Of a stretch of 37,472 bases of DNA, positions 3,036 through 27,041 are shown in pieces. Position 1 is the first letter of the stretch, and every line of letters begins with the position of its first letter. This stretch comes from a virus. Its lineage: Duplodnaviria; Heunggongvirae; Uroviricota; Caudoviricetes. The notes under the pieces are model-generated. The model was not told the origin of the DNA. It did not search any database and saw nothing but the letters and a program-made list of their open reading frames with translations. A program made the position numbers and the translations under genes. The stretch is taken from IMG/VR virus record IMGVR_UViG_2561511241_000010; one strand, 5' to 3'.

Positions 3036-3398
3036 ATGAAACTTTTATTCGCTGCAGCGTTTTTGCTTGTGGCTGGATGTACGAACAAACACACAGATAA
3101 CGCATTCCAGATGGATTACCCGGTTGATGCCTCTCGTTTATCGCTCGGTGGTGATATTCACGTAAATATCGACTGTGCCACCAAAGAGGTGGAAGTTATT
3201 TCAGACAGTAGCAACGGAATATTCAGCCGCCATATAAAAAAAAGGTTAAGTAATATTTGCTACAATAAACCGGATAAGCTGGATGTCGTTTATCGCTTTA
3301 ATTCAGCAAAGGGCGTGAAACAAGATATGATTGCAACTCATTACCCACGAGTTCCTCCCGTGTCAAATCCCAACAAACTGAGAGATGGGGATTCTTAG
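3036..3398 (+). CDS. Lipoprotein moron, antisense to the tail operon
   Basis: N-terminus MKLLFAAAFLLVAGC is a signal peptide with lipobox; AGGAA ribosome-binding site; AT-rich upstream region; 3' end overlaps the convergent ORF 3363..4004. Confidence 0.6.
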   Translation: MKLLFAAAFLLVAGCTNKHTDNAFQMDYPVDASRLSLGGDIHVNIDCATKEVEVISDSSNGIFSRHIKKRLSNICYNKPDKLDVVYRFNSAKGVKQDMIATHYPRVPPVSNPNKLRDGDS

Positions 3399-4004
3399 CC
3401 CACGCCCCTGAAACGTCTGGCCCCAGTTGCGCTGATTATTTGAAATATATCTGCCCTGCAACTGTGATCCCGTCCACTTCAGCACTATCCCCGAATAACC
3501 GACCACCTCCCCGTCATCGCTGAGATTTCCGGGGCAGTTGTTGACCAGAATCCACGGATTAAAGCTGAGGCTCACCGATAGTGTGTTGTTTTGGAGGTCA
3601 TAGTTCGCTGGCACATCAAAGAAACCGACAACTCGGGGCATTTTTGATGCAGAAACAGCACTCCAGATGAGATTTCCGGCACTGTCGAAGACATCCAGAT
3701 ACCCGCTTTGAATTCCAATGTTACGCGCAGTGCGGATCATGCTCCCCGCGTTATCTTCAAGCAGGTCCGCACCAGGCATCCCGTATCTGTTTGCGCCAAG
3801 CTGCAGCCACCTTAATCTCCCGTCATTCCAGAATGCCTGCGGAGTGAATCCCAGGGTGCTGCCATTCCCAAATGGGCTGTCTACCTGGTAAAAACCTTTG
3901 TTGTTCACTGCGCCGAGCGTACGTTGGTCATAAAAAAGGGTGGACCTGTTTTGCGAGTCCACCAGTAATTTTCCATCGCTGTTGTAAACTTCGAATCCGC
4001 TCAT
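3363..4004 (-). CDS. Hypothetical tail-region protein
   Basis: 213-aa ORF with normal composition, coupled to the upstream ORF (4-nt overlap at 4001..4004). Confidence 0.5.
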   Translation of the reverse strand: MSGFEVYNSDGKLLVDSQNRSTLFYDQRTLGAVNNKGFYQVDSPFGNGSTLGFTPQAFWNDGRLRWLQLGANRYGMPGADLLEDNAGSMIRTARNIGIQSGYLDVFDSAGNLIWSAVSASKMPRVVGFFDVPANYDLQNNTLSVSLSFNPWILVNNCPGNLSDDGEVVGYSGIVLKWTGSQLQGRYISNNQRNWGQTFQGRGLRIPISQFVGI

Positions 4005-4303
4005 TGAAAGTTATACACCTCCACATTGAGTGTGATCGCAGGACTGCCGGTTGAGGGCAAATAGTAAGCTGTAAAACCGCCATTATAGGCGCGGCAGTGG
4101 TATTCGTTGACAGTGACGCCAGTCGACACAATTGAGATGAATGAGCCATCCTGGGTTATCCCGACGAAGGAAACGTTTTTCGACGTTTCCCCCGCAGCGA
4201 ATGTTACTGAGGTGCTTCCGATATACCGGATGGCATAATCACTCAAATCAACCGCTATGCGCCCTGCACTGTCCCAGCATTGCAACCCCTGTGGCATTAC
4301 CAT
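4001..4303 (-). CDS. Hypothetical protein downstream of J
   Basis: 100-aa ORF overlapping the J stop (4297..4303) and the next ORF. Confidence 0.45.
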   Translation of the reverse strand: MVMPQGLQCWDSAGRIAVDLSDYAIRYIGSTSVTFAAGETSKNVSFVGITQDGSFISIVSTGVTVNEYHCRAYNGGFTAYYLPSTGSPAITLNVEVYNFQ

Positions 4304-7300
4304 AACCCCATTCTGACACGCAGTACGTTATTGCTGTCATAGATACGAATGAGAGTGCTGGTTATCAGCATCCTCCCGCCCCCGGCCACGCCGTTAATTT
4401 CGAACGTTCCACTCTTATCAAGCTTCCAGCCTGCAGAACCAGCCACATAGTTATTCGACTGGATATAGTTGCCGATTTTGGCATTGCTGATGGTCCCGTC
4501 ACCGATGACCGTATCCCTGATAATGGTTTGGCCATTCTGGATAACGAACGGGAGCGTAACATTACCGCCTGCCTGGGTCATGACAGCAAAACGGTCAGCC
4601 AGGAACAGAACCTGTGACTGCATGCCCTCTGGCGTATTCTGAACACCAATGCCCATTCCGGCTGCGTACTGGTTGCCATTAGAATCAACAGCTACCTTGA
4701 TGCTGTACATTGCATTCAGGTTGTTATTGATGTCGGCTGATACCTGGCTGTTCTGGACAATATCTGCAGACTGGCCGTTAACCGTGACCTTAAGCGAGTT
4801 AATTTGCGTCGCAGACGCCTGGGTGAAGTCAGCAAGTGTCTTCGACAAGTCAGTGACATTCGCTATGTTTCCACCGGCACTGGAATCTAGGGTACGCAAC
4901 GACTCAGCGACAGCCTTACTGGCTTCGGCCATGACATTGTCGACTCGCTCAATACCGGCTTTATTATCACCATACTGAACGCTCAGAAGGTTGCGCTGGT
5001 TAACCTGTGCGAGCGTGCTGGTTATCAGCGCGATGGCATTGTTTTGAATACCACCGTTGGCCTTATCCGTTCTTGCTGCCAACTCCTCCAGGCGGGACGC
5101 CACTGACGAAGTCGTGTCTGTGACAACCTGCCGCAGCGTGGTGATATCAGCAGTGTTTTGTGAGCTGGCTTGTTCAGCTGCGTCTGCCTTACCTGATGCA
5201 GCATCAGCTTTACTCGAAGCCGAATCAGCTTTATCAGAAATGACCTGAGTACTCGCAGTGAGCTGATCAACAGCAGTTGCCCTTGCCTGAGCTTCATCTG
5301 ACAGAGCCTGCCTTACCTCGGTAATTCCCGCTTCGTTCTGCGCTGTTTTTGCCTCAAGACGGATAACATCCGTTACGCGTGCCTCCGTCTCAGTAGCGAT
5401 AACCTCCCGGAGCTGTTCGAAAGTCGCAGAGTTAGCGCCCTGTTGGGCTGTCTGGCGCACGACAACATCGGCAATAGCCAGCGCGTTGCCGATGATTGCT
5501 TCTGCTGTCTGCTTATTCGAACCTACGGCGGCAGCCAGCCCATCGGCGTTCTCCTTAATTGCTTCAGAAAACTCGGCCAGTTTCTCGCTACTGTCTACAG
5601 CACTTTCAATCAGATCCTTAAATACCTCGGAATCTTTAATCTCCTCCAGGATCGCATCGGTGATATCGGATACATCGATGCTGGCCTGACCGCGCACAAA
5701 GTCTGTATACCCTGATTCGTTGCCGCTGCGGTCCACCAGCTGCGCGCGATACCAGAAAATCTGCCCAGCCTTAAGGCCCATCTGCTGATATTTGCGCTGC
5801 GGGTAAGGCACATCGGCCAGCAGTATCGCATCGTCTTCGGTACCGGTCAGGCTGTACTGAATTTCCGTCTTCAGCGTGTCGTCGGTATTCGCCGGGAATC
5901 CCCAGTTCAGCTCGATACCAAATACAACGTTTTCAGAAGCGATGAAGCCAACCGGCTTCGGTGGGCTGCCCACTTTACCCGTCAGCGTTTTCTCTTCTGA
6001 AGAGCCCCATCCGGAAGAAATTTCTGCGGCATTGATTGCGCGCACGCGCACCAGGTAGCGCCCTGCATAAATCCCCTGGACGTCGAATGATGTGGTGGAG
6101 CTGCGCGGCACGTTAACCCAGTTCCCGTCGTTGCGGCGCCATTGCGCTTCATAGGCGATAGCGTTCTGCGCCTGGTCCCAGCTCACGCGCATGGTCTCAA
6201 CGCTGATATTTTGCTGCACCACGGAAAACGAGCTGATCACGATGTTCGAAGGCGGCGACTGGTTACCCGGCGGGATTACACTCACCGGCCGCTGGTCGAT
6301 GATGGCTCCGGTATCGATGCGGGCATATTTATCCGGGTCGTGCCATGCGCCAGTAATCGAGAAAGTGCCATCATCCTTTTCGGAAACGCTGACAACACGA
6401 TACTGCTGCGCATAGAGCTCGTCAGATTCAACCACCCAAACAGCTTCGGCCTGTGGCGTCTCACTGTATGCCGTGGTGACTGTGACTGATTCCCCGTTTA
6501 CGGCCTGAATGGTCCTGCTCTGCGACACTCCGGATGGTAAGTTGAGAATAAGGCGATCACCTGCTGCTGCATCTGCCACGCGGTCAAGTTTGATAACGCG
6601 ACCGTTAACGGCGCTGATGCGGCCGCCCATAACCTTTCCGGAAAGCAGCTCGTCTGCCACGGCGATGATGTAGCCCGGCTGCGGAATGTTGCCGTCCAGC
6701 CCGACATCAAACGAAACAACACGATCCTTGTTGTTGGTGAGAATACCCCAGCGTCCCTTTCGGTTAGCTTCTGACTGCCTGGTGCAGCCGATGGCTGTCA
6801 TTTCCAGCTGATTGAAGCCGTACCGCGCCACCAGCGCCTGCTCAAATACCGGCTCCATCGCGTCGGCATAAGCGTTCCCCGGATCTGACCATGAAACCAG
6901 TGCTGTGGTGTAGCGGCTTTTCGTGGTGCTGCTCGAATAGGTGAAGCGACCGCCAACAACGTTAGCGCGCGTGTAGCTGTAATCAACATCGCGCGGCATG
7001 TCAGCCAGGGCCACAATCTGATCCCCGCCCCAGTAGGTCATGCCACGGAAGATAGCGGCAAAATCACGCAGGACTGTGTAGGCGTCGTTCCGGTCCTGAA
7101 TGTACACGTTGCAGGTATAACGTGGTTCGGTACCGTTGCCCCCTTTGCCGTCTGGTACCATCTGATCACAATACTGGGCAACCTGATAAAGCGTCCATTT
7201 ATCAATATTCGCAGCGGTCAAACGGTGCCCGAGGCCGAACCGGTCAGAAACAACCAGATCGTAAAAAATCCACGCAGGGTTATCCGTCCATGCCCACTTA

Positions 7301-8121
7301 AACGCACCGGTCCATGTACCGCTATAAGTGCGGGTTTCAGGGTCGTAGGTATCTGGAACGCGGATAACGCGGCCGCGGGGCTCGCAGGAGATCTGAGGGA
7401 TAGAGCCGTTAAACTGGCTGGAATCGAATTCGATGTAGAGTAACGCTGTGTTTGGATATCGTAACTTGGCGTCAATCACCTCAGTGAAGCTCTGCAGCGT
7501 CATCGTGTCGCCGATCTTCGCGCTGTTGGCATCAGAGGTAATCTTAGGCAGACGTATTGTCCAGGTGCTGCCAGCCTGCGGTAAATCAATGCGGTGGCTG
7601 CGCTCATAACCAGACGTCGTTTTGCCGGTCACGCTGGTATTGAGTACCGTCTGCCATGTGCCGCCGTCCGTCTGCAGGTCAATCGCATAATTGACCGAGT
7701 AACCCACCAGATCACCGTCGTCCTCCTGTTTGAAAAGCGAGGGCCATTTCAGACGCAGGCGAACTGCTGAAAGCTGCGTATTGGTAAAGGTGCGCGTCCA
7801 TGCTGTAGCGCTTGATACCTCAGTTCCTACGCTGATTTCGTTTTCGGTACCGGGAATACCCTGAATATATTTTTGGGCCTGCGTTCCCGCGCGAAACTCC
7901 CACGTTACGCCGCTGAAGTTTTGGGAGCCGTCAGCATTCTCCAGGGCTGTTCCGTCCAAATAGATATCTTTGCCGGTTAGCTGCCCTGCAAACTCCCCTT
8001 CGCCAAGCGCAACGAGGATTTTTGCCTTCGCTACAGATTGCAGATCATCAGGCTGTTCGGTAGGGGTTCGTGAACTGGAGCTGCCGCCCTTGCGGCCCTT
8101 TAACACTTTATCTGTAGCCAT
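4297..8121 (-). CDS. J: Host specificity / central tail fibre protein J
   Basis: 1274 aa; N-terminal region resembles lambda gpJ; follows the I-K-L-M order. Confidence 0.9.
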   Translation of the reverse strand: MATDKVLKGRKGGSSSSRTPTEQPDDLQSVAKAKILVALGEGEFAGQLTGKDIYLDGTALENADGSQNFSGVTWEFRAGTQAQKYIQGIPGTENEISVGTEVSSATAWTRTFTNTQLSAVRLRLKWPSLFKQEDDGDLVGYSVNYAIDLQTDGGTWQTVLNTSVTGKTTSGYERSHRIDLPQAGSTWTIRLPKITSDANSAKIGDTMTLQSFTEVIDAKLRYPNTALLYIEFDSSQFNGSIPQISCEPRGRVIRVPDTYDPETRTYSGTWTGAFKWAWTDNPAWIFYDLVVSDRFGLGHRLTAANIDKWTLYQVAQYCDQMVPDGKGGNGTEPRYTCNVYIQDRNDAYTVLRDFAAIFRGMTYWGGDQIVALADMPRDVDYSYTRANVVGGRFTYSSSTTKSRYTTALVSWSDPGNAYADAMEPVFEQALVARYGFNQLEMTAIGCTRQSEANRKGRWGILTNNKDRVVSFDVGLDGNIPQPGYIIAVADELLSGKVMGGRISAVNGRVIKLDRVADAAAGDRLILNLPSGVSQSRTIQAVNGESVTVTTAYSETPQAEAVWVVESDELYAQQYRVVSVSEKDDGTFSITGAWHDPDKYARIDTGAIIDQRPVSVIPPGNQSPPSNIVISSFSVVQQNISVETMRVSWDQAQNAIAYEAQWRRNDGNWVNVPRSSTTSFDVQGIYAGRYLVRVRAINAAEISSGWGSSEEKTLTGKVGSPPKPVGFIASENVVFGIELNWGFPANTDDTLKTEIQYSLTGTEDDAILLADVPYPQRKYQQMGLKAGQIFWYRAQLVDRSGNESGYTDFVRGQASIDVSDITDAILEEIKDSEVFKDLIESAVDSSEKLAEFSEAIKENADGLAAAVGSNKQTAEAIIGNALAIADVVVRQTAQQGANSATFEQLREVIATETEARVTDVIRLEAKTAQNEAGITEVRQALSDEAQARATAVDQLTASTQVISDKADSASSKADAASGKADAAEQASSQNTADITTLRQVVTDTTSSVASRLEELAARTDKANGGIQNNAIALITSTLAQVNQRNLLSVQYGDNKAGIERVDNVMAEASKAVAESLRTLDSSAGGNIANVTDLSKTLADFTQASATQINSLKVTVNGQSADIVQNSQVSADINNNLNAMYSIKVAVDSNGNQYAAGMGIGVQNTPEGMQSQVLFLADRFAVMTQAGGNVTLPFVIQNGQTIIRDTVIGDGTISNAKIGNYIQSNNYVAGSAGWKLDKSGTFEINGVAGGGRMLITSTLIRIYDSNNVLRVRMGLW

Positions 8122-8128
8122 ATTGCGC

Positions 8129-8155
8129 CCATAAAAAAAGCCACCCGAAGGTGGC
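8129..8155 (-). repeat. 27-nt hairpin plus T7 element, copy 1 (between I and J)
   Basis: Minus strand reads GCCACCTTCGGGTGGC-TTTTTTT-ATGG; identical to 8784..8810. Confidence 0.7.
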
Positions 8156-8174
8156 CAGAAAAAAGGTTAGTTAT

Positions 8175-8774
8175 CTACTGCTGATCTTCGACATAAATTC
8201 CGGCAGAAATAATCGCTCCGCCTATCCGCCGGCGGCCATATAGGAGCGGAACTGGATAGCCTTGCGCCGCGGTGTTTGTTACACCACCGAATGCGTAGGA
8301 TGCGCGGTTATCTGCGCTTTGTTTGCTTGCCAGACCTGCAGGTTGAGGAGATAGCATTTGGACAACGCCTCCCAGCATCATGGCTGCACCGAATTTCGCA
8401 GCCCCGTACCCCACCGCTGATAGAGTGCCGCCTGAGAAATAGCCAATGGCTACCCCAACAACGACGAGCACGGCGCCAAGAATTGTCTGTAATACCCCGG
8501 CTTTTTTACTTCCGATTACCACCGGGACAATTCGAATAACTTCACCGGTTACCGGAAAACCAAAATCATCCTTTCCGATATTTTTTTTATCTTTAAAAAC
8601 GGCGTAAGTCAGGCCCCTTGCTTTGCTGGTGATCAGGAATTTCTCCAGCCCGTTTATAGTTTTTGTAAGAGAGTTGATCGCCTCAGCGGTTGTGCGTATT
8701 AATCGATGGTGAACCTTTCCATAGGTTTTACCCAAAACACCGCCAAGCTCAATTCGGGTCATGACCTCTGACAT
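8175..8774 (-). CDS. I: Tail assembly protein I
   Basis: 199 aa with Gly/Ala-rich hydrophobic C-terminal half like lambda gpI; position between K and J. Confidence 0.85.
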   Translation of the reverse strand: MSEVMTRIELGGVLGKTYGKVHHRLIRTTAEAINSLTKTINGLEKFLITSKARGLTYAVFKDKKNIGKDDFGFPVTGEVIRIVPVVIGSKKAGVLQTILGAVLVVVGVAIGYFSGGTLSAVGYGAAKFGAAMMLGGVVQMLSPQPAGLASKQSADNRASYAFGGVTNTAAQGYPVPLLYGRRRIGGAIISAGIYVEDQQ

Positions 8775-8783
8775 TTTCTTTCT

Positions 8784-8810
8784 CCATAAAAAAAGCCACC
8801 CGAAGGTGGC
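8784..8810 (-). repeat. 27-nt hairpin plus T7 element, copy 2 (upstream of I)
   Basis: Exact copy of the 8129..8155 element; sits between the lipoprotein stop and the I start. Confidence 0.7.
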
Positions 8811-8829
8811 TTAGCTTATTTTTAACTTT

Positions 8830-9162
8830 TCAAAGGCATGATCTGGCAGCCGTAGCCCAGTGATCGTTCCATCCTTTTGCGACGGCGTAAACTTTAACAT
8901 CGCTTCCGCCTGCTTCTGATTTATCGATATTCACCACTGAAAGGGCGCCGAAAATATCGTCTGATGCTGTTATTTTGTAACCTGACTCAGTTGGTATGCT
9001 GGAGCTTGAAGATCGAAGCTCCACCCATTTAGGGGCCAGGCATCTGTTAACCTGATCTGCACTCTTTGAAGTGTGTTCAGAAAGAATAGGCTTTTGGGAT
9101 TCGAGGGAGTTTACAGAGCAGCCAGCCAAACCAATAACTAGCACCAAGAATAGCTTTTTCAT
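8830..9162 (-). CDS. Lipoprotein inserted between tail genes K and I
   Basis: Internal start MKKLFLVLVIGLAGC gives signal peptide plus lipobox; GGAG precedes ATG 9168/9162; the longer table ORF (to 9330) would overlap K and is rejected. Confidence 0.55.
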   Translation of the reverse strand: MKKLFLVLVIGLAGCSVNSLESQKPILSEHTSKSADQVNRCLAPKWVELRSSSSSIPTESGYKITASDDIFGALSVVNIDKSEAGGSDVKVYAVAKGWNDHWATAARSCL

Positions 9163-9191
9163 TTTCATGCTCCTTTGAAATTTCGTAAAGG

Positions 9192-9902
9192 TTAGCATAG
9201 AGATCTGTGACGTAGAATCTTCATCGTCCTTTCCTGCCAGTAGCCACCATACGGCACGCGCTGGCTCAGATGTCCATACAGGTGGTGCAGCAGCATATTT
9301 CCCTCCAGCAGAATTCCCGCGTGATTCCACTTATCGGCCTGGACCTGCATGATCACCATATCGCCGGGTTTCGGTGGTCCGTCGAATTCACGGAATCCGC
9401 ACTCATACCAGCAATCCTGATAGAAGTTGTCCGGATAGTCGTTTTCCCACCAGGGATAATCGACGCGGTAATCATGGAGTTCGATGCCATGCGTTTGCCG
9501 GAAATAGCTCATTACCAGCCCCCAGCAGTCGAAGTGTCCAAGCACAAACGGACGCTCCAGTAGCGGCAGTTCTCCGCGCGGCTGGATGGTGCGTAAATCA
9601 CCCTCCGGCCAGCTCACAATATGCCAGGGTAAAAGCGTTGCGTCGTATTGCGCTTTATCCAGTTCGCTAGGTTGCGTTGTGGCGTCAGGGTGACTGTGAA
9701 CGATGGCGATCACCGTTCCCCAGTCCTCAGCAGCTGCGTAGTCTTCTGGGCAAAGGACAAAATTGTCCTCCGGCGCCGCGGCAAGATTCCGGCACGGGAA
9801 ATAACGTTCAACGCGGCTTTTCTGCGCCACCACGCCGCAACACTCATGAGGAAATTCAGCTGCAGCATGCGCCATAATCGCATCGATGGTTTTCTGACGC
9901 AT
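9192..9902 (-). CDS. K: Tail assembly protein K (MPN/JAB plus NlpC/P60-like)
   Basis: 236 aa with the HSHP metal-binding motif and a cysteine-peptidase-like C-terminal region as in lambda gpK. Confidence 0.88.
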   Translation of the reverse strand: MRQKTIDAIMAHAAAEFPHECCGVVAQKSRVERYFPCRNLAAAPEDNFVLCPEDYAAAEDWGTVIAIVHSHPDATTQPSELDKAQYDATLLPWHIVSWPEGDLRTIQPRGELPLLERPFVLGHFDCWGLVMSYFRQTHGIELHDYRVDYPWWENDYPDNFYQDCWYECGFREFDGPPKPGDMVIMQVQADKWNHAGILLEGNMLLHHLYGHLSQRVPYGGYWQERTMKILRHRSLC

Positions 9903-9903
9903 A

Positions 9904-10662
9904 TCAACTCCTGATCAAAGACGTGCCCGGGAAGCCACCAAATGAGAGTTCGTTATTTTCGCCGAATCGGAGTTTGCAGGCCGTCAGCGTGCCGTTGCAT
10001 TCATCCAGCGACGGATCGCTTACCGGGTTGTTGTTTTTGTCGAAATAGCGGGTGCCGGCATAGTCGCAGCCGTCGCCTGTACGATATTTATTCCGGATGC
10101 ACCAGGTACACAGGGAATGAAGCTGTCGCGTCGGGATCATTTGCCCCTGCAGGTCCATCGGGCTGGACAGAGCAAATTCAACGGTTTCACCGGCAAGCTC
10201 GCCCGTTTTCCCGTCGATATACCACACCTGCAGCTTTTCCTGAGTCGGGTCTGCTGTGGGGTTGCCGTCTGCGAAATTTCTGGCATCGAGATATTTCTCT
10301 TTTGTGTCGTGAATAGTGACTTTCGCCTGCAGCAGATCGTCATACGCAAGACACAGGGCAGAAATGGAGCTTTCGATGTTCGCAACCGTCAGTGATGGCG
10401 TTGCATTGCTCCCACTGGTTGATTTCTCCAGACCTTCCAGTTGATATGGCCAGGCGGCATATTCATTTCCCTGCCACCAGATTGGTTTCGCCGGAAGCTT
10501 GGACTCATCCCCACCAGCGGCGATGATTTCCGCTTCTGTGTGGGGAATGCTGTAATTGTGAAAGCGGAGAACGTCCGTTAGCCCAAAGGAAGAACCGTCC
10601 ACCTCAATCAGGCGAACATCGTTTCCGGATTCCAGCTTCTGATAATCTGCGTTTAAGCTCAT
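9904..10662 (-). CDS. L: Minor tail protein L
   Basis: 252 aa resembling lambda gpL, including the conserved C-terminal cysteine cluster. Confidence 0.88.
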   Translation of the reverse strand: MSLNADYQKLESGNDVRLIEVDGSSFGLTDVLRFHNYSIPHTEAEIIAAGGDESKLPAKPIWWQGNEYAAWPYQLEGLEKSTSGSNATPSLTVANIESSISALCLAYDDLLQAKVTIHDTKEKYLDARNFADGNPTADPTQEKLQVWYIDGKTGELAGETVEFALSSPMDLQGQMIPTRQLHSLCTWCIRNKYRTGDGCDYAGTRYFDKNNNPVSDPSLDECNGTLTACKLRFGENNELSFGGFPGTSLIRS

Positions 10663-10997
10663 GGTTTAAATGCCTGGATGAATGTTGCTTCAAGGTTGAA
10701 TTTCCCCGCGCCCAGCCCGGTGGGTTTATACGTTTCGCAACGATATAAACCCAAAGGCTCGAGCGGCGGCTTCCACTGAAAGGCTTTCGTTCCTTCATGC
10801 CTGTCGAGAAAAGACTTAATGGCAGAAATGTAGGTTTCGTTGCCAGTGAAGTTAAGCGTCCACTGCTGAGTTCTAGTGTTCAATCCATCCCCTGAAACCT
10901 GCTCATATCCATCGCCAAACTGGGCTTTCCTGACGCGGAAACTTGTATCAGCCTCCGCGTTAATCCGTGGGCACCAGGTGAAAGTTTCAATGGCCAT
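10659..10997 (-). CDS. M: Minor tail protein M
   Basis: 112 aa; motif RKAQFGDGYEQ parallels lambda gpM RKVRFGDGYSQ. Confidence 0.85.
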   Translation of the reverse strand: MAIETFTWCPRINAEADTSFRVRKAQFGDGYEQVSGDGLNTRTQQWTLNFTGNETYISAIKSFLDRHEGTKAFQWKPPLEPLGLYRCETYKPTGLGAGKFNLEATFIQAFKP

Positions 10998-10999
10998 AA

Positions 11000-13900
11000 T
11001 TATCGGGTTCCTTTCATTGCGTTCCAGATGTCGCCGCCGGGACGAATGTCACGCATCACATTCTGCTTATAACGTCGATCAACAAATTCCCCGACCTCGG
11101 CACCAAATTGCTCAAGGCCTGGAGAGGCCTGAGTTTGAGTGTTGCCGTTGCCATCGATGGTGATATAAACCTGTGGCGCCGAAGATACAGACTGACCGCC
11201 GCCACCTCCGACCGCACGAACGCCGAGAGAACCATCCGGCGCGCGGGTAAGCGGCATGATCGCCTCAGGCCCAGCCTCGCCCATGATTCCGGCACCGCCT
11301 TTTGCGAAAGCGAACATGGTGGGGTTTCTGACGATCCCATTACTGAAAGCGCTCAGAGAGGGGGAGTCATAAACGCCGCCTTTGGCGTTAAACTGGAAGT
11401 TCGATCCGTAACTGGAAACCGCCGTACCGGTGCTGGCTGATGCTCCCGCACCGCCCCCGAAGAAGCTGCCTACACTGCCGATGAGAGAGCCAAAGATGCC
11501 AGAACCGGAAGAGGCCCCACCCATCGCGCTAACCACCGCCATCTGCAGAGCCACTTTTTCGATAATCTGCAGGACAGAAATACCCCACGATTTCCAGCTA
11601 ACCTTATTGCCTTCTAGCATTGAGGTGACGTTACCAAACGCGCTGTCGAGTGTGGTTTTCACCCCATCAGAAACCGTGCCGGATACGTTACTGATTTCAT
11701 CAAACCAGTTTGCATAGCCGCGTGATACTCCGGACATCCAATCCGCTTCAGCTGCTGCAATAGCCTTGTATTTCTTATCCAGAGCATCGAGGGCTGCGGC
11801 GCGCTGCGCGATGGCCTCGGTCCCGCCGTCCGTTTTAGCAAAAACACGGTCGATCTGTTGCGTCTCGTCGAACCGGCTGCGCTGGCGATCGCTCATGCCT
11901 GCAGTTTCGGTTGTCAGCGTCGCCTCATCCCTGAACTTTCTGGCCGCTTCAGTTAAATCCTTCAGGGCATCAGCTTGTTCGCGCTGCTTGCGCACGTTCT
12001 CGTCGGCTTTTTGCGTCCATTTTGCCAGCTCTGCTGATGATGCCTGGATCGCCCTGCGCTGCTCGTCGGTCCATTTAGTGCCTGCCTGGTGCGATGCAGC
12101 GTAAAGCTCCGAGGCTTTTTCGCCTTCCGTGGCCCGAACGCGTTGCACGTCAATAGCCACGCTCAGATCGGCCATTTTCCGGGAATACTGTTCGGCGGTG
12201 CTGGCCGCTTCGCGCTCGGCTTTACTCTGCGCATTTGAGGCAGCAGTGGAGGTTTTTTTTGCTTCTGCAGCTGCTGCATCCTTTTTGGCTGCCTGATCCT
12301 TGTTGTAGATGTACTGTGTATAAAGCGCCCCCGTCAGCTTCAGGTCTTCTGCTTCGTAGACGTGCTGCTGATGGAGTTTCTCTAATCCGCTTAAGCTGGC
12401 CAGCTCATTATCGCGACGCGAGCGCTCCAGTGCAGTTTGCTGTTGAGGCGTTGCGTTCGCCAGAGAGACAACTGGCCCGGCATACTGCGGCGGCTTCGCG
12501 CCAGCGGTCGCAGACATTGAGCGGTTAAGCAGGTCATACGCACCTTTCAAGATAGAGACTGCGCCAGCCTGTTCGATAGCCTTTTGCGTGGCCAGATCGC
12601 TGGCATTGTTTACCAGTTTCTGCGTTTGCTCGACTTTTGAGGCTGCCTGTTCGCGCTGGTACTCCAGCTGGTTCAGCTTATCGGTCAGCTCGATGTTTTT
12701 GGCCATGATGTCGGCCTGGCCCATGAAAGTGTTAATCAGGGTCAGCGTCGGATGGCGGTTGTAGTCCTGCTGGATTTGGTCAACCGCCTTAAGGCTGTCT
12801 TTCACCTTCGCGATCTGAGAGTCGAGGTCGGCCAGGTCCTGTTTTTGCGCCTGTAAAGATGTACGGGCATCGGCCGCGGTCGAACGCAGGCCAAGCACCG
12901 ACATCTGCTGGAGCTTGGTGTTGATCTCGTCGAGGTTGTTGGCAAAACCTACCGCCTCACGGTGCACCTGCTGGGTATGCTGATACAGGCCATACATCGC
13001 AGCGCCGGCACCGATAATCACTCCAGGCCAGCCCCCGAGAATACCAAGAACGCCACTACCCAGGCGGGACATCACTGAGGCTGTATTGGTGAGGTTATTA
13101 ACGGCCGAAGTCCTGCCAGCAAGCGCCGTATTCAGTGATGCCTGAGCAGCAGCAAGATTACGCTCAGCGACAATCTGAGCCTCAATACTCGTCGCCGCTG
13201 CACGCGCCTGTTGAGCGCGGTAAACAGCCTGGCGACCAGCAGCAACGCTAACCTGAGCTCCACGGACCTGAGCCTGCGCCAGCGCGACCTCGGCGGCCGT
13301 ATTAGCGAGAACTGCCCGGGTTGACTGAGCAACGCTGCCGACCATGTTGCCAAAATAACGAGCGAGGCCAACACCAACCAGAATACCGGCTGTATTTGCC
13401 ACATCATCGATGTTATTCGCCAGGCCATCCAGCACGCCGGAAAGCGTTGATGATGCGCCGACCGCATCGTTCGCCCCGCCAACCCATGCAAGGAAGGCGT
13501 TTTGCACTTTCTGTGCAGATCCGCTGATGGATGCAGGAAGGGTGTCGAATTCTTTACGCAGGATCTCGACATTGGTCAGCAGCGGGACGATCTTGTTTGT
13601 CGTCAGTTCGCCGTTGTTGGCCATATTTCGCAGGCCACCAACAGTGGTACCCAGCCCATCAGCCAGCAGTTTCGCCAGGCGGCCGCCGTTCTCCATGATG
13701 GAGTTAAATTCTTCGCCTCGCAAAACGCCTGAGCCAAGCGCCTGGCTAAGCTGGGTGATAACAGAGCTCGCCTCTTCGGTACTGGCGCCAGACAGCTTCA
13801 GTGAGGTTGCTACGGTTTCCGTAACTTTTGCGACGTCAGCAGAAGCGTAACCGGCATCACGCAGGGACTGTGCAATTCTGCTGTACAGATTGCTGTTTGC

Positions 13901-14281
13901 CTCGAGGGATGTTCCGGTGCGCTGGCTAATTTCCATCAGCACGCGCTGGGATTGCACGTAATCCTCACTGGAAGAGGACGCAAGGCGAAGACGCCCATTC
14001 AACTGGTTCCACGTGTCGGCAAACTGAATCAGCTGATGTGTGGCAAATGCACCAGCCCAAGCACCGGCAAGCCCGGCAGCAGAAGATCGCACGGTTGCAA
14101 GCTGAGAATTCAGGTCAGCCAAAGACCGCTGAGTTTCACGCGTGGCCGCTGCAGCTTTTTTCCCGCCCTGTTCCATAGTGCGGTAGTAATCGGTTCCCAT
14201 ACGGGACGCTCTGGCGATCTCTGACTGGAAAGAAGAAGAGTTCGCCGAAATTTTGATGATTAGCTCGCGCAGCGTTGCCAT
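11000..14281 (-). CDS. Tail tape measure protein
   Basis: 1093 aa, Ala/Gln-rich coiled-coil character with Gly-rich C-terminal part; lies between G/T and M. Confidence 0.9.
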   Translation of the reverse strand: MATLRELIIKISANSSSFQSEIARASRMGTDYYRTMEQGGKKAAAATRETQRSLADLNSQLATVRSSAAGLAGAWAGAFATHQLIQFADTWNQLNGRLRLASSSSEDYVQSQRVLMEISQRTGTSLEANSNLYSRIAQSLRDAGYASADVAKVTETVATSLKLSGASTEEASSVITQLSQALGSGVLRGEEFNSIMENGGRLAKLLADGLGTTVGGLRNMANNGELTTNKIVPLLTNVEILRKEFDTLPASISGSAQKVQNAFLAWVGGANDAVGASSTLSGVLDGLANNIDDVANTAGILVGVGLARYFGNMVGSVAQSTRAVLANTAAEVALAQAQVRGAQVSVAAGRQAVYRAQQARAAATSIEAQIVAERNLAAAQASLNTALAGRTSAVNNLTNTASVMSRLGSGVLGILGGWPGVIIGAGAAMYGLYQHTQQVHREAVGFANNLDEINTKLQQMSVLGLRSTAADARTSLQAQKQDLADLDSQIAKVKDSLKAVDQIQQDYNRHPTLTLINTFMGQADIMAKNIELTDKLNQLEYQREQAASKVEQTQKLVNNASDLATQKAIEQAGAVSILKGAYDLLNRSMSATAGAKPPQYAGPVVSLANATPQQQTALERSRRDNELASLSGLEKLHQQHVYEAEDLKLTGALYTQYIYNKDQAAKKDAAAAEAKKTSTAASNAQSKAEREAASTAEQYSRKMADLSVAIDVQRVRATEGEKASELYAASHQAGTKWTDEQRRAIQASSAELAKWTQKADENVRKQREQADALKDLTEAARKFRDEATLTTETAGMSDRQRSRFDETQQIDRVFAKTDGGTEAIAQRAAALDALDKKYKAIAAAEADWMSGVSRGYANWFDEISNVSGTVSDGVKTTLDSAFGNVTSMLEGNKVSWKSWGISVLQIIEKVALQMAVVSAMGGASSGSGIFGSLIGSVGSFFGGGAGASASTGTAVSSYGSNFQFNAKGGVYDSPSLSAFSNGIVRNPTMFAFAKGGAGIMGEAGPEAIMPLTRAPDGSLGVRAVGGGGGQSVSSAPQVYITIDGNGNTQTQASPGLEQFGAEVGEFVDRRYKQNVMRDIRPGGDIWNAMKGTR

Positions 14282-14298
14282 ATTTCACCCATAAAAAA

Positions 14299-14314
14299 GC
14301 CCGCAGCCGCGGGC
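14299..14314 (-). terminator. Intercistronic hairpin plus T-run between T and tape measure
   Basis: GCCCGC-GGCT-GCGGGC followed by TTTTTTAT on the minus strand. Confidence 0.4.
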
Positions 14315-14315
14315 A

Positions 14316-14579
14316 TCAAAGACTGGACATCCATTCTTCAAGTTCAGAGACTTCAGCGCCTTCTTCCTGCTCACCCCATTTCAGCATCACGTCAGGAATG
14401 GTGAATTTCCCGCCCTGAGAGTTCAGCATTGCAACGGAGATCTGCGCCGCCTGAGCATCGGCGCGCCAGTCACCAATCGGACTGATGCGGTCGAACTCGA
14501 TCCACATTTTGAGCTCGCTGGCGGTCATGGTCTGGCGCAGTTCGTGGAGAGTACGCCCCAACCGGAGCGCCAGCGACAT
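14316..14579 (-). CDS. Tail assembly chaperone T segment, expressed as a G-T fusion by -1 frameshift
   Basis: Frame is open from the slippery site at the end of G through this ORF; the frameshifted read GKAVKQPLTFFLMSLAL joins the MSLALRLG ORF. Confidence 0.7.
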   Translation of the reverse strand: MSLALRLGRTLHELRQTMTASELKMWIEFDRISPIGDWRADAQAAQISVAMLNSQGGKFTIPDVMLKWGEQEEGAEVSELEEWMSSL

Positions 14580-14602
14580 CAGGAAGAAGGTCAGCGGCTG
14601 CT

Positions 14603-15004
14603 TTACGGCTTTCCCGCTTCTTCCTGGCTCATGCCGAGATTGAGGGCCTGAGCCAGCAGGCGGGAGTGCACAGGACCATAAATTTTAGATACCTGCTCCT
14701 GATCCTCATCGCTGAATACTCGCTCGCCGTTTTCATCCAGCAGAACGTCAATAAACAGAACCACATCAGCCTCTTTGTTACGCAGAAACTTTTCCGCCTC
14801 CGTCAGCGTCGGTGCCTCTTCGCCCTCGGCGAGCTGGGGATTAACGATCTCCCGGAATTTCACCCAGGCATCGCCAGAGGGTTCACGCAGCGTTACCTTT
14901 GCGCCATCCCATTCAGGGACCGTGATACCTTCTTTGGTGCGATAGGCTTTCGATGCTGTAAGCGCCACGTTGCGTAATGAATTCTGTGATGTTTTTTGCG
15001 GCAT
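14603..15004 (-). CDS. Tail assembly chaperone G
   Basis: 133 aa, acidic, immediately upstream of the tape measure; ends ...EEAGKP with the slippery heptamer in its last codons. Confidence 0.8.
   Translation of the reverse strand: MPQKTSQNSLRNVALTASKAYRTKEGITVPEWDGAKVTLREPSGDAWVKFREIVNPQLAEGEEAPTLTEAEKFLRNKEADVVLFIDVLLDENGERVFSDEDQEQVSKIYGPVHSRLLAQALNLGMSQEEAGKP
14609..14615 (-). other. Programmed -1 ribosomal frameshift slippery heptamer G_GGA_AAG
   Basis: GGGAAAG, identical to the lambda G/GT slip site, positioned two codons before the G stop. Confidence 0.7.
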
Positions 15005-15034
15005 TTCATTTTTCTCTTGTTACATGATCGAAGG

Positions 15035-15057
15035 GATAAAAAAAGCGGCCGAAGCCG
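15035..15057 (-). terminator. Hairpin plus T-run downstream of the major tail protein gene
   Basis: GCGGC-TTCG-GCCGC followed by TTTTTTTAT on the minus strand. Confidence 0.5.
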
Positions 15058-15058
15058 C

Positions 15059-15529
15059 TCAGGAACCAGACGCGTAGATGCGTTTAGGTTTGCCGCGTAC
15101 ACGCAGAGAATAGGTAGCGCCAACAACGGAAGAGGTTGCAGCAGACCATGAGCTCTGGCGTACCTCCACCAGCACGTAGAAACCGTTACCAGACGGGAAT
15201 ACCACGCGCAGCGCGCGCAGTTCGTCATTTTCGTAAGCGGTCTGCAGTGCCTCCTGTGCTGCTTCATCGCCAACCCAGTTACGGGTAATGCTCATTTCAG
15301 CAGGCGCGGCGAGGCCGTTGGTTTGCTCCTGTTCAGTTGAGCACAGCGTGGTTACGTCGATATCCCCTTTTTGACCGCCTGTGAAGGTGATCTCCTTTGT
15401 TGCACAGGCCGCTTCCAGCCAGGTAACACCAGCCCCCGGGAAACCTGAGGCGTTAAAATCCTCGGCGGTTACGGGTGCGTCGGAGACGGCAAAGGTCATC
15501 CCCTTTGTGACTTCATACTTACTGGTCAT
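15059..15529 (-). CDS. Major tail (tube) protein
   Basis: 156 aa in the position between head-tail joining genes and the G/T chaperones. Confidence 0.65.
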   Translation of the reverse strand: MTSKYEVTKGMTFAVSDAPVTAEDFNASGFPGAGVTWLEAACATKEITFTGGQKGDIDVTTLCSTEQEQTNGLAAPAEMSITRNWVGDEAAQEALQTAYENDELRALRVVFPSGNGFYVLVEVRQSSWSAATSSVVGATYSLRVRGKPKRIYASGS

Positions 15530-25699: not shown

Positions 25700-25984
25700 C
25701 TAACAGTCGGCATCTGGACGCGCTACAGCACGACAGGCCCACATGCAGGCTTCCTGCATTTTGGTGCGCGCAATGGCGAGACAGCGCAGCGCCTCTGAAC
25801 GATCGCTAGCCTCATCAGAGTTGGCCTCCACTACCTGCAAAGATAGATGTGTGCGTTCAAGGTCCAACTGCTCGCAAAAATCACGGCTAATTTCCTTCAG
25901 GCCATTCATTTGAGCAATATCGTCTGCGGAGAGGGTTCGATATCCTTTTACTGTACTTCCGTCCTGTGGTTTAGCTTCACTCAT
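25700..25984 (-). CDS. Hypothetical protein at the end of the lysis cassette
   Basis: Start chosen at internal Met (MSEAKPQ), which overlaps the upstream lipoprotein stop; about 94 aa, soluble. Confidence 0.4.
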   Translation of the reverse strand: MSEAKPQDGSTVKGYRTLSADDIAQMNGLKEISRDFCEQLDLERTHLSLQVVEANSDEASDRSEALRCLAIARTKMQEACMWACRAVARPDADC

Positions 25985-26214
25985 GGAGTTCTCTTCTCGG
26001 TTGGTTTCTGGCAGTTCGCCTGCCACGCTTTGTTATGCGCCAGGATGTCTTTCTTCGTCTGGCGGTCCAGAACATCCCAGTCGTGATCCGTTCCGTATAT
26101 GGGTTTAACCCAGTCGCAAGCCGTGTCCACTACTTCAACCTTTACGGGTCCAGTTGTCCCGCAGCTCGCGATCAACATCGTCGCCAGACATATGGTTAAC
26201 AGTTTGCTGTACAT
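25981..26214 (-). CDS. Outer-membrane lipoprotein, o-spanin-like
   Basis: Signal peptide with lipobox LIASC; start lies inside the 3' end of the upstream membrane-protein gene in another frame. Confidence 0.5.
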   Translation of the reverse strand: MYSKLLTICLATMLIASCGTTGPVKVEVVDTACDWVKPIYGTDHDWDVLDRQTKKDILAHNKAWQANCQKPTEKRTP

Positions 26215-26404
26215 TGCTGGCCTCTTTCGTTGTCTCTACCCGGCGATCTGCTGCTGCGACCGTTGCAACAGCGTTATCTTCGGTGCGCTGCTGATCTGCT
26301 TTTGCTTCTGCTTTGCTTGAGCCGCGAATATGGCCCAGGCCGAAAGCGCCAGCGATGGCGGCAATGACTGCTGCAGCAATACCAATTAAAGTTTCAAACC
26401 CCAT
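26135..26404 (-). CDS. i-spanin-like membrane protein
   Basis: Start at internal Met (MGFETLIGIAAAVIAAIAG), 8 nt after the endolysin stop; N-terminal transmembrane segment then charged region. Confidence 0.4.
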   Translation of the reverse strand: MGFETLIGIAAAVIAAIAGAFGLGHIRGSSKAEAKADQQRTEDNAVATVAAADRRVETTKEASNVQQTVNHMSGDDVDRELRDNWTRKG

Positions 26405-26411
26405 AGTGACC

Positions 26412-27041
26412 TCACACCAGCACAGATTTCGCCAGGTTAAACAGCGCGCGGCGTTTATCCAGACCGTTACGGCCGCCATTGATAAGCAGCGTGACGCGCT
26501 CCACATCACCTGAATGGAGCAGGCATCCGTGAGAGACGTAGAACCATGCGGCGGAGCGCGCAGCGTATTCATCTCGTTCCAGTAGTTCGGGATAAGAAAC
26601 CAGATCCAGTTTGAGCGCCTGGCCGCAGCTGTGATAGTTGCTAAGCCCGGTGATTTGCTTAAGGCCTCGCCCGCGATATTTCCAGCCATCGCCAGCAACC
26701 TGGTTGCCCAGGTTCTTTTTGCCCCACTCACCGCCATAAACCAGATTGGCTATCGCTTTCTGATTTGCTGGTTGCGTTGCCGTTCTGCCGAGCGCGGCGG
26801 CCTGCTGTGCAGTAATGCGATGCTTGCCGAACGTAGGTACCAGGTTTTCTGCCGCATAGTTCAGGTTTTCCACCAGCCGGGTGAAACCGCCGGACTCATG
26901 GCCCATCTGCGCGATAAACATGACCTGATCGAGCGGCGCGGTTATGCCGAATTCCTTCATTGCAGCATCGATATAGTGAAACCAGCGCACGGCTAGACTG
27001 GCGCTTATACCTGCCGCCTTTTGAAATTGTGTTTGGTCCAT
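26412..27041 (-). CDS. Endolysin, GH19 (chitinase class I-like) lysozyme
   Basis: 209 aa; region FIAQMGHESGGF...YGGEWGKK...GRGLKQITG matches the GH19 endolysin pattern. Confidence 0.8.
   Translation of the reverse strand: MDQTQFQKAAGISASLAVRWFHYIDAAMKEFGITAPLDQVMFIAQMGHESGGFTRLVENLNYAAENLVPTFGKHRITAQQAAALGRTATQPANQKAIANLVYGGEWGKKNLGNQVAGDGWKYRGRGLKQITGLSNYHSCGQALKLDLVSYPELLERDEYAARSAAWFYVSHGCLLHSGDVERVTLLINGGRNGLDKRRALFNLAKSVLV

Follow-up and report, generated by a model that had tools for sequence, protein, structure and literature searches.

Here we describe a small lipoprotein gene located between the tail genes K and I of a tailed virus of the class Caudoviricetes (IMG/VR record IMGVR_UViG_2561511241_000010; the whole stretch of 37,472 nucleotides is called the window in the following). 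That this gene is lipoprotein cargo of the phage is very likely. It is an ordinary member of PHROG 914, a family that is already catalogued but uncharacterised, and makes up, with its intrinsic terminator, a two-part accessory cassette; the K-I interval of this HK97-like prophage, integrated at ssrA, serves as a slot for variable cargo. The leading guess for its function, to which we assign a probability of about 0.4, is superinfection exclusion at the level of the envelope. From its site on the periplasmic side of the outer membrane, the lipoprotein would counter incoming phages by targeting a conserved component of the envelope, of the tail tip or of the ejection machinery; the receptor recognised by the phage's own J tip would not be its target.

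The gap between K and I contains a single open reading frame (ORF) with a TGA stop codon at 8832-8830. The original prediction of a 110-amino-acid (aa) ORF that is co-oriented with the tail operon and embedded in it was confirmed, since K, I, J, L, M and H are all located on the same minus strand (Table 1). The claim that lambda has no gene at this position is also correct, because lambda K (14276-14875) and I (14773-15444) overlap. In the window, 29 bp separate K from the lipoprotein gene, and a 55-nt spacer is found between its stop codon and the start of I. The opposite strand inside the gene does not contain an ORF of 40 aa or more. Two in-frame ATGs, at 9168 and 9162, would yield proteins of 112 and 110 aa, respectively. 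The likelier start is ATG 9162, because it has a spacing of 7 nt to the Shine-Dalgarno motif AAGGAG, the majority of the aligned homologues start with MKK, and RefSeq calls the 110-aa form (WP_223861874.1, annotated as hypothetical protein, with the same coordinates in E. coli ETEC1749). The arrangement AAAGGAG-N-ATGAAA is kept in the upstream regions of close relatives.

The protein starts with MKKLFLVLVIGLAGC, in which a hydrophobic core links the basic n-region to the lipobox L-A-G-C. The signal reads MKKLFLVLVIG-LAGC, which fits the lipobox pattern [LVI][ASTVI][GAS]C, and the signal peptide with lipobox (VIGLAGC) that had been noticed before was thus borne out as a canonical signal. Its lipobox cysteine is conserved across homologues: it occurs in every one of 22 close homologues (alignment A1) and in at least 90% of the more distant 50 (alignment A2); the Pfam model LPAM_1 matches 9 of 50 family members. 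Bacterial lipoproteins are processed by Lgt, LspA and Lnt and sorted by the Lol system, for which Asp is the retention signal. Since the residue following the acylated cysteine is Ser and not Asp, the product is probably anchored in the outer membrane, facing the periplasm, after export and acylation on Cys15. The two further invariant cysteines, Cys43 and Cys111, presumably form a disulfide, as the pair is conserved and thereby points to an oxidising compartment, and a C-x2-PKW motif is likewise conserved in the family alignments. AlphaFold2, using the 22-sequence alignment, predicted the mature domain with confidence, most of residues 21-112 having a pLDDT of 85-96 and two blocks of 10 residues one of 77; the mature protein would accordingly be a compact alpha/beta domain of 10 kDa, stabilised by a single disulfide. 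A structural or virion role is unlikely, since the export signal and the disulfide cysteines are conserved.

Directly downstream of the gene we found the predicted hairpin and T-run (8812-8786, -15.9 kcal/mol, z = -2.9 in comparison to shuffled sequences). The stem has 8 bp including five G-C pairs and is closed by a UUCG loop, and immediately 3' of the terminator begins the ribosome-binding site (GGAG, 8785-8782) of gene I. In the related loci described below, a hairpin with T-run is present in the spacer between the lipoprotein gene and I in 85 of 87 cases, and terminators also follow distant homologues at other sites. An Rfam search of the region gave as its best result a sub-threshold small RNA match over the terminator (E 0.67), which we took as chance.

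The base composition of the gene deviates from that of its surroundings: its overall GC content is 0.46 and its GC content at third codon positions (GC3) is 0.42, whereas K, L, J and H have a GC3 of 0.60; gene I partly shares the low GC3. An extra gene, a terminator of its own and a deviant base composition are among the features of a moron sensu Juhala et al. 2000, which also include a promoter of its own. The original prediction of a second envelope-targeted moron therefore stands with regard to the accessory nature of the gene, its lipobox, its terminator, its GC3 and its absence from lambda and most relatives, but a promoter was not found.

The protein matches PHROG 914 (function unknown) with an E value of 2.8e-25, residues 4-112 aligning to profile positions 3-118 of 118. 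In a set of 5.8 billion proteins 48 homologues were detected, mostly from Escherichia, Enterobacter, Citrobacter, Atlantibacter, Pantoea and Xenorhabdus, and a profile search of 1.84 billion cluster representatives returned 72 clusters at 50% identity, nearly all with proteins of about 110 aa. The median pairwise dN/dS among 62 distinct lipoprotein alleles is 0.10, compared to 0.04 for K and I, showing that the gene is real and under purifying selection. Full-length homologues are encoded by the phages Fraca and LMessi (82% identity to the window protein), by Klebsiella phage phiKO2 (gp19, 46%, annotated in the record as 'putative moron gene product') and by Serratia phage OS31 (p54, 40%), and the fold search added gp33 of Pseudomonas phage phiAH14a with about 33% identity. 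The lipobox, the two conserved cysteines, the K-I position and the terminator are common to the phage members of PHROG 914 and the window allele.

The comparison of K-I spacing in related prophages showed that the position of the gene is remarkably constant. In all 87 loci from IMG/VR and GTDB, which were fetched with close-family patterns, the lipoprotein gene fills the slot between K and I, nearly always 48-59 bp upstream of I, and the same position was found in phiKO2, OS31, Fraca and LMessi. Related-locus searches that started from the diverse alignment A2, from P0064 or from P0089 gave no usable loci. The Pseudomonas branch has only about 30% identity and has kept the address: in 12 of 13 Pseudomonas-type virome loci the gene lies directly upstream of I. 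Pseudomonas phage vB_PaeS-D14P (BK061589.1) contains between K and I an unannotated ORF for a 113-aa lipoprotein of the PHROG 914 type (locus L094, 3956-4297), followed by a terminator at 4396-4415. Distant members are located elsewhere in the tail region, each with its own terminator: between M and L of a lambda-like tail, in which K and I overlap as they do in lambda (locus L170), or directly before a J-like gene in a DUF1833-type tail. Altogether, homologues fill the K-I slot in about 100 loci from prophages or viromes of Enterobacterales and Pseudomonas. The recurring unit is thus the lipoprotein gene with its terminator and its habitat is the tail-tip gene cluster. A recent one-off insertion was rejected, since the family occupies this slot of lambda-like tail modules from Enterobacterales to Pseudomonas.

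The same data bear on the idea that the lipoprotein is a periplasmic inhibitor, a kind of immunity protein, of the NlpC/P60 peptidase domain of incoming K-type tail proteins. The gene is located directly downstream of K, which encodes JAB and NlpC/P60 domains, and some effector-immunity partners are periplasmic, disulfide-bonded proteins, as is predicted for the lipoprotein. However, the constant neighbour is I and not K: K lies anywhere between 29 bp (as in the window) and 6.3 kb away, the interval containing unrelated genes, and one homologue lies between M and L. In addition, the fold searches did not reveal similarity to known immunity proteins. We consider such an inhibitor highly improbable.

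The region between K and I is a cargo slot. Lipoprotein segments are swapped on nearly identical backbones of K, I and the N-terminal part of J, and if only locus pairs with I proteins of at least 98% identity are considered, 42% of them have mature lipoproteins that are less than 90% identical. A tight pairing of lipoprotein alleles with I was thus rejected at short range. Three further lipoprotein families occur in the slot (PHROG 2320, YecR-like and PHROG 890), and other occupants are a KilA-N protein and unknown ORFs of 139-168 aa. phiAH14a has an HNH endonuclease and the PHROG 890 lipoprotein there, and the slot of mEp234, and by annotation that of HK022 (gp20), contains a gene for a 74-aa YebO-like membrane protein together with a related terminator. 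In locus L156 such a YebO-like gene adjoins the PHROG 914 lipoprotein gene. The K-I junction would thus be a predictable slot for envelope-acting accessory genes in lambda-like prophages.

The PHROG 2320 lipoprotein (115-128 aa) is unrelated to PHROG 914; its gene lies between K and the PHROG 914 gene and ends 6 bp before it. It is present in LMessi-type loci (locus L001, 2647-2994; about 20 IMG/VR loci, for example L125, L128 and L131; the GTDB loci L087 and L092), whereas the window allele lacks this extra upstream gene. In seven loci (L132, L133, L138, L139 and L146-L148) only fragments of 48 and 56 aa are left, which suggests decay of the PHROG 2320 gene next to an intact PHROG 914 gene. 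In L152 (K ends at 3653, the lipoprotein gene starts at 10007) and L153, K is set apart from the lipoprotein gene by insertions of 6.3 kb and 2.8 kb. Furthermore, 0.5-0.9 kb are inserted between I and J in L088, L100, L104, L118 and L124, and therefore the I-J junction is a second cargo slot.

Exclusion is the best guess for the function because sister phages carry YebO-like proteins (the HK97 gp15 family) or other lipoproteins in the slot. Tail-operon morons have repeatedly proved to be phage-versus-phage weapons, for example HK97 gp15 and Pseudomonas Tab, and the inactivation of an outer-membrane receptor from the inside is best understood for periplasmic lipoproteins such as Llp and Rtp45. 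YebO belongs to the family of HK97 gp15, the archetypal moron, located in a tail operon, for which superinfection exclusion has been shown experimentally (PMC3594210). The YebO-like cargo (HK022 gp20 / mEp234_018) resembles the window gene in being small, envelope-targeted, followed by a terminator and located in the very same K-I slot, and these neighbours in position are the best indirect argument for an exclusion role. There is no relationship between the proteins themselves: those of the YebO type have about 74 aa and cross the inner membrane once, whereas the window product is a 96-aa lipoprotein with a folded domain and a predicted location in the outer membrane. HK97 gene 15 itself is located at the junction of chaperone and tape-measure genes and not between K and I.

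Phage phiAH14a contains two pairs of a lipoprotein gene followed by I (locus L093, 3957-4948, corresponding to 13998-14989 of the record; locus L169, 26548-28310). The pair in the tail operon consists of gp83, the PHROG 890 lipoprotein, and gp84. The other one, gp33 (the PHROG 914 homologue) and gp32 (a full-length I paralogue), lies at a great distance from the tail genes, after the repressor gene and in the orientation of the latter; the C-terminal ends of the two I copies are identical. The start of gp33 was annotated too far downstream, the true ORF begins with MRIAALGLAVALLSGC. We count the lipoprotein-I copy beside the repressor gene in favour of exclusion.

Several observations weigh against the exclusion reading. 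The first concerns the receptor-binding end of J. K, the lipoprotein gene, I and the complete J were extracted from 59 loci, and pairwise identities were compared by Spearman correlation. Lipoprotein identity correlates with that of I (rho 0.83), K (0.77) and the J N-terminus (0.74), less with the middle of J (0.48) and hardly with the last 250 aa of J (0.18). Among 261 pairs with lipoproteins at least 97% identical, half have J ends that are less than 40% identical, and an identical lipoprotein was found together with J proteins of 1056-1316 aa with unrelated ends. The lipoprotein allele is thus uncoupled from the receptor-binding end of J, which weakens a strict analogy to Cor and Llp. In addition, the Pfam scan of 50 diverse relatives returned only the lipid-attachment motif and scattered chance matches, and the PADLOC-DB v2 defence models did not match at E values up to 0.01. 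The predicted fold is generic and offers no hint of function. The closest solved structure in the fold search, the Francisella lipoprotein Flpp3, has a sequence identity of 6-10%, and homology to it is not established, since unrelated proteins of the TBP-like, KA1 and Bet v1-like types have this fold in large number. Some distant homologues lie on chromosomes with no link to phages, and, as described below, a convincing promoter was not detected. Finally, one metagenome-assembled genome (Pseudescherichia sp. MAG SMAGNO111) contains two prophage loci, L086 and L087, with similar tail tips and lipoprotein alleles 98% and 84% identical to the window allele. If this double lysogeny is not a binning artefact, it is a weak indication that the lipoprotein is no barrier to a related phage.

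The independence of the J end bears most directly on the suggestion that the lipoprotein masks the phage's own outer-membrane receptor in the manner of Cor, Llp and Rtp45: by binding the receptor from the periplasmic side it would render it useless, protecting lysogens from superinfection and progeny virions from cell debris. Llp and Rtp45 are small, disulfide-bonded, outer-membrane-anchored periplasmic exclusion lipoproteins (PMC12685063). Like the window gene, Llp of T5, Cor of phi80, N15, HK022 and T1, and Rtp45 of Rtp are phage-encoded, have a lipobox and a disulfide and are located near host-specificity genes (PMC12685063, PMC9586334); the likeness to Llp and Rtp45 extends to the small size, the predicted outer-membrane location and the single predicted disulfide. 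A location in the late operon would make such a mask abundant at lysis. One chromosomal homologue, P0068 (matching the family profile at E 9e-9), is preceded at 55 bp by a gene of the OprD porin family and followed by a gene for a ToxA_N/LRR protein; it was found on eight contigs, seven of which share the arrangement with L173 (2642-4339), and L174 (1650-3347) shows it as well. This neighbour could hint that the family associates with outer-membrane barrels. However, a receptor mask is expected to track the receptor-binding end, which the lipoprotein does not (0.18 compared to 0.83 for I and 0.77 for K). Moreover, the folded domain of about 95 aa exceeds the approximately 6-8 kDa of Cor, Llp and Rtp45; the window protein has 10 kDa with a predicted TBP-like fold and shows no homology to them.

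The profile search for Cor- and Llp-like families was negative, yielding signal-peptide matches only. Homology to Cor (PHROG 1119) was rejected at E 0.16, with residues 3-31 aligned to profile positions 1-28 of 78, and homology to T5 Llp at E 0.46; similarity to PDB 8a60_B was found neither in sequence nor in fold. We regard a mask of the phage's own receptor as improbable. Because of the independence from the J end, any exclusion target is more likely to be found among the conserved components of the envelope, the tail tip or the ejection machinery.

It might also be possible, with a low probability, that the PHROG 914 lipoproteins are an old class of tail-module-linked exclusion proteins that act after adsorption: anchored at the outer membrane on its periplasmic side, they would intercept a conserved component released by lambda-like tail tips in the course of penetration. 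Candidates for such a component would be the hydrophobic I protein, the C-terminus of the tape-measure protein or the N-terminal hub of J. Interception after adsorption would explain why the gene stays beside I from E. coli to Pseudomonas, why it is indifferent to swaps of the J receptor end, and why phiAH14a has an intact lipoprotein-I pair beside its repressor gene.

The transcription of the gene is a further point at which readings of its function diverge. Expression from the repressed prophage is the defining property of a moron. A consensus scan upstream of the lipoprotein gene did not detect a sigma-70 promoter, and the highest score of a position weight matrix (PWM) scan belongs to a site that overlaps the start codon. 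Of the usable PWM sites the best is TGGACA-19-TATGGT at 9276-9246, with a score level expected about once per 500 bp, and an alignment of ten upstream regions did not reveal conservation beyond the coding constraint of K. Expression of the lipoprotein gene in a lysogen can thus only be presumed. It is conceivable, at rather long odds, that the lipoprotein is merely a helper of the lytic cycle, transcribed only with the antiterminated late operon and conditioning the outer membrane or periplasm ahead of lysis or blocking re-adsorption of newly released virions, with no role in the lysogen. The lack of a detectable promoter, K being only 29 bp away, the distance of 6 bp to another upstream ORF in LMessi-type loci and the maintenance in late operons over long evolutionary time are in line with such a helper.

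Against a purely lytic helper speaks the conservation of the terminator in nearly every lineage, which would serve no evident purpose if only terminator-resistant polymerase reads the gene. Furthermore, judging from descriptions and taxonomy, all phage records that carry the gene appear to be temperate or prophage-derived, and the extra copy in phiAH14a is located in the immunity/early-left region and not in the late operon. In the exclusion reading, the antiterminated late transcript would read through the lipoprotein gene during lytic growth. Some non-antiterminated transcription would also enter the gene, for example in lysogens, and would be stopped before I and J, since the conserved terminator is otherwise hard to explain.

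The non-phage chromosomal homologues raise the question of a benefit for the host. Lambda Bor is also an accessory lipoprotein gene of a prophage; it lies in a different region of the lambda genome, near the lysis genes. A Bor-like surface or periplasmic fitness factor brought by lysogenic conversion, acting in serum resistance, adhesion or envelope stress, would have Bor as precedent for a prophage outer-membrane lipoprotein (PMC3594210), and Flpp3, the nearest solved fold, has been described as a virulence determinant of Francisella. Such a role seems unlikely to us. The family is tied to tail-tip clusters in Enterobacterales, Pseudomonas and soil phages, in any host niche, and because this linkage is independent of the niche, a phage-related role fits better than host fitness. 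Homology to lambda Bor or Iss was rejected, as a match to Pfam Lambda_Bor is missing. Using blastn with a word size of 11, the gene was detected in only one of 5426 complete E. coli genomes (ETEC1749, from pig).

If the lipoprotein excludes phages, its target probably differs from the known ones. The stable address next to I and the independence from the J tip offer a lead, simple to test, to an exclusion target that may be new. Should the lipoprotein turn out to be a fitness factor or a lysis helper only, it would be one more accessory gene of the usual kind.

Other assignments were rejected as well. The match to an Rz1-like o-spanin (E 0.14) is confined to the signal peptide, and the gene is located in the tail operon and not in a lysis cassette. 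Matches to VirB7 and TraH were likewise at the level of the signal peptide only. Sequence profiles do not place the protein in DUF3568 or with Flpp3, Pfam has no family for it at E values up to 1, and a relative with solved structure was not found by sequence search.

Table 1. Features of the lipoprotein gene region in the window.
Feature	Position	Strand	Remarks
J	4297-8121	-	lambda-type tail-tip gene row
Second terminator, between I and J	8139..8156	-	nearly identical to the terminator of the lipoprotein gene; common core GCCACCTTCGGGTGGCTTTTTTTATGG
I, tail assembly protein	8175..8774	-	PHROG 32, E 5e-72; GC3 0.47
Intrinsic terminator of the lipoprotein gene	8786..8812	-	stem-loop 8812-8793, then 7 T
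Lipoprotein gene	8830..9162	-	110-aa precursor; 96-aa mature protein, 10.3 kDa; PHROG 914 match
Mature domain	8833..9117	-	predicted beta-alpha-beta4-alpha (TBP-like); invariant Cys43 and Cys111 (112-aa numbering)
Lipoprotein signal peptide MKKLFLVLVIGLAG and Cys15	9118..9162	-	Cys15 predicted to be acylated; lipobox LAGC at 9118-9129
Shine-Dalgarno motif AAGGAG	9170..9175	-	7 nt before ATG 9162, 1 nt before ATG 9168
K, tail tip protein	9192..9902	-	JAB/MPN and NlpC/P60 domains (Pfam, PHROG); stop TAA 9194-9192
L	9904-10662	-	lambda-type tail-tip gene row
M	10659-10997	-	lambda-type tail-tip gene row
H	11000-14281	-	lambda-type tail-tip gene row

Gene I is bracketed by a 27-nt direct repeat, formed by the two near-identical terminators with the common sequence GCCACCTTCGGGTGGCTTTTTTTATGG, and in mEp234 a related terminator, AACCACCTACGGGTGGTTTTTTTATGG, follows its own, different cargo gene. 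The repeats around I could be conserved mosaic boundaries or recombination sites for the exchange of cargo.

The stretches 8400-9600 and 8780-9200 of the window are 100% identical to the ssrA-integrated prophage of E. coli ETEC1749. Another 19 E. coli genomes share K at its 3' end; homology to them breaks off near its stop codon, and I is unmatched in its 5' part, too. Relative to these 19 prophages, the lipoprotein gene and at least part of I behave as a single mosaic block. PHROG 914 is more at home in prophages of Enterobacter, Klebsiella, Citrobacter, Kluyvera and Buttiauxella. Phage Fraca has been suggested to derive from Enterobacter (PMC6969025), with which the rarity in E. coli fits.

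Two other ORFs with a lipobox are present in the window. The minus-strand ORF at 25981-26214 encodes 77 aa (MYSKLLTICLATMLIASC) and partly overlaps a 200-aa ORF at 26135-26737; its position is as expected of an Rz1-type o-spanin, for which it is a candidate by position only. The plus-strand ORF at 3036-3398 encodes a 120-aa protein (MKLLFAAAFLLVAGC) of PHROG 25729, a family of unknown function, and is presumably the 'first' lipoprotein implied when the gene between K and I was described as the second one.

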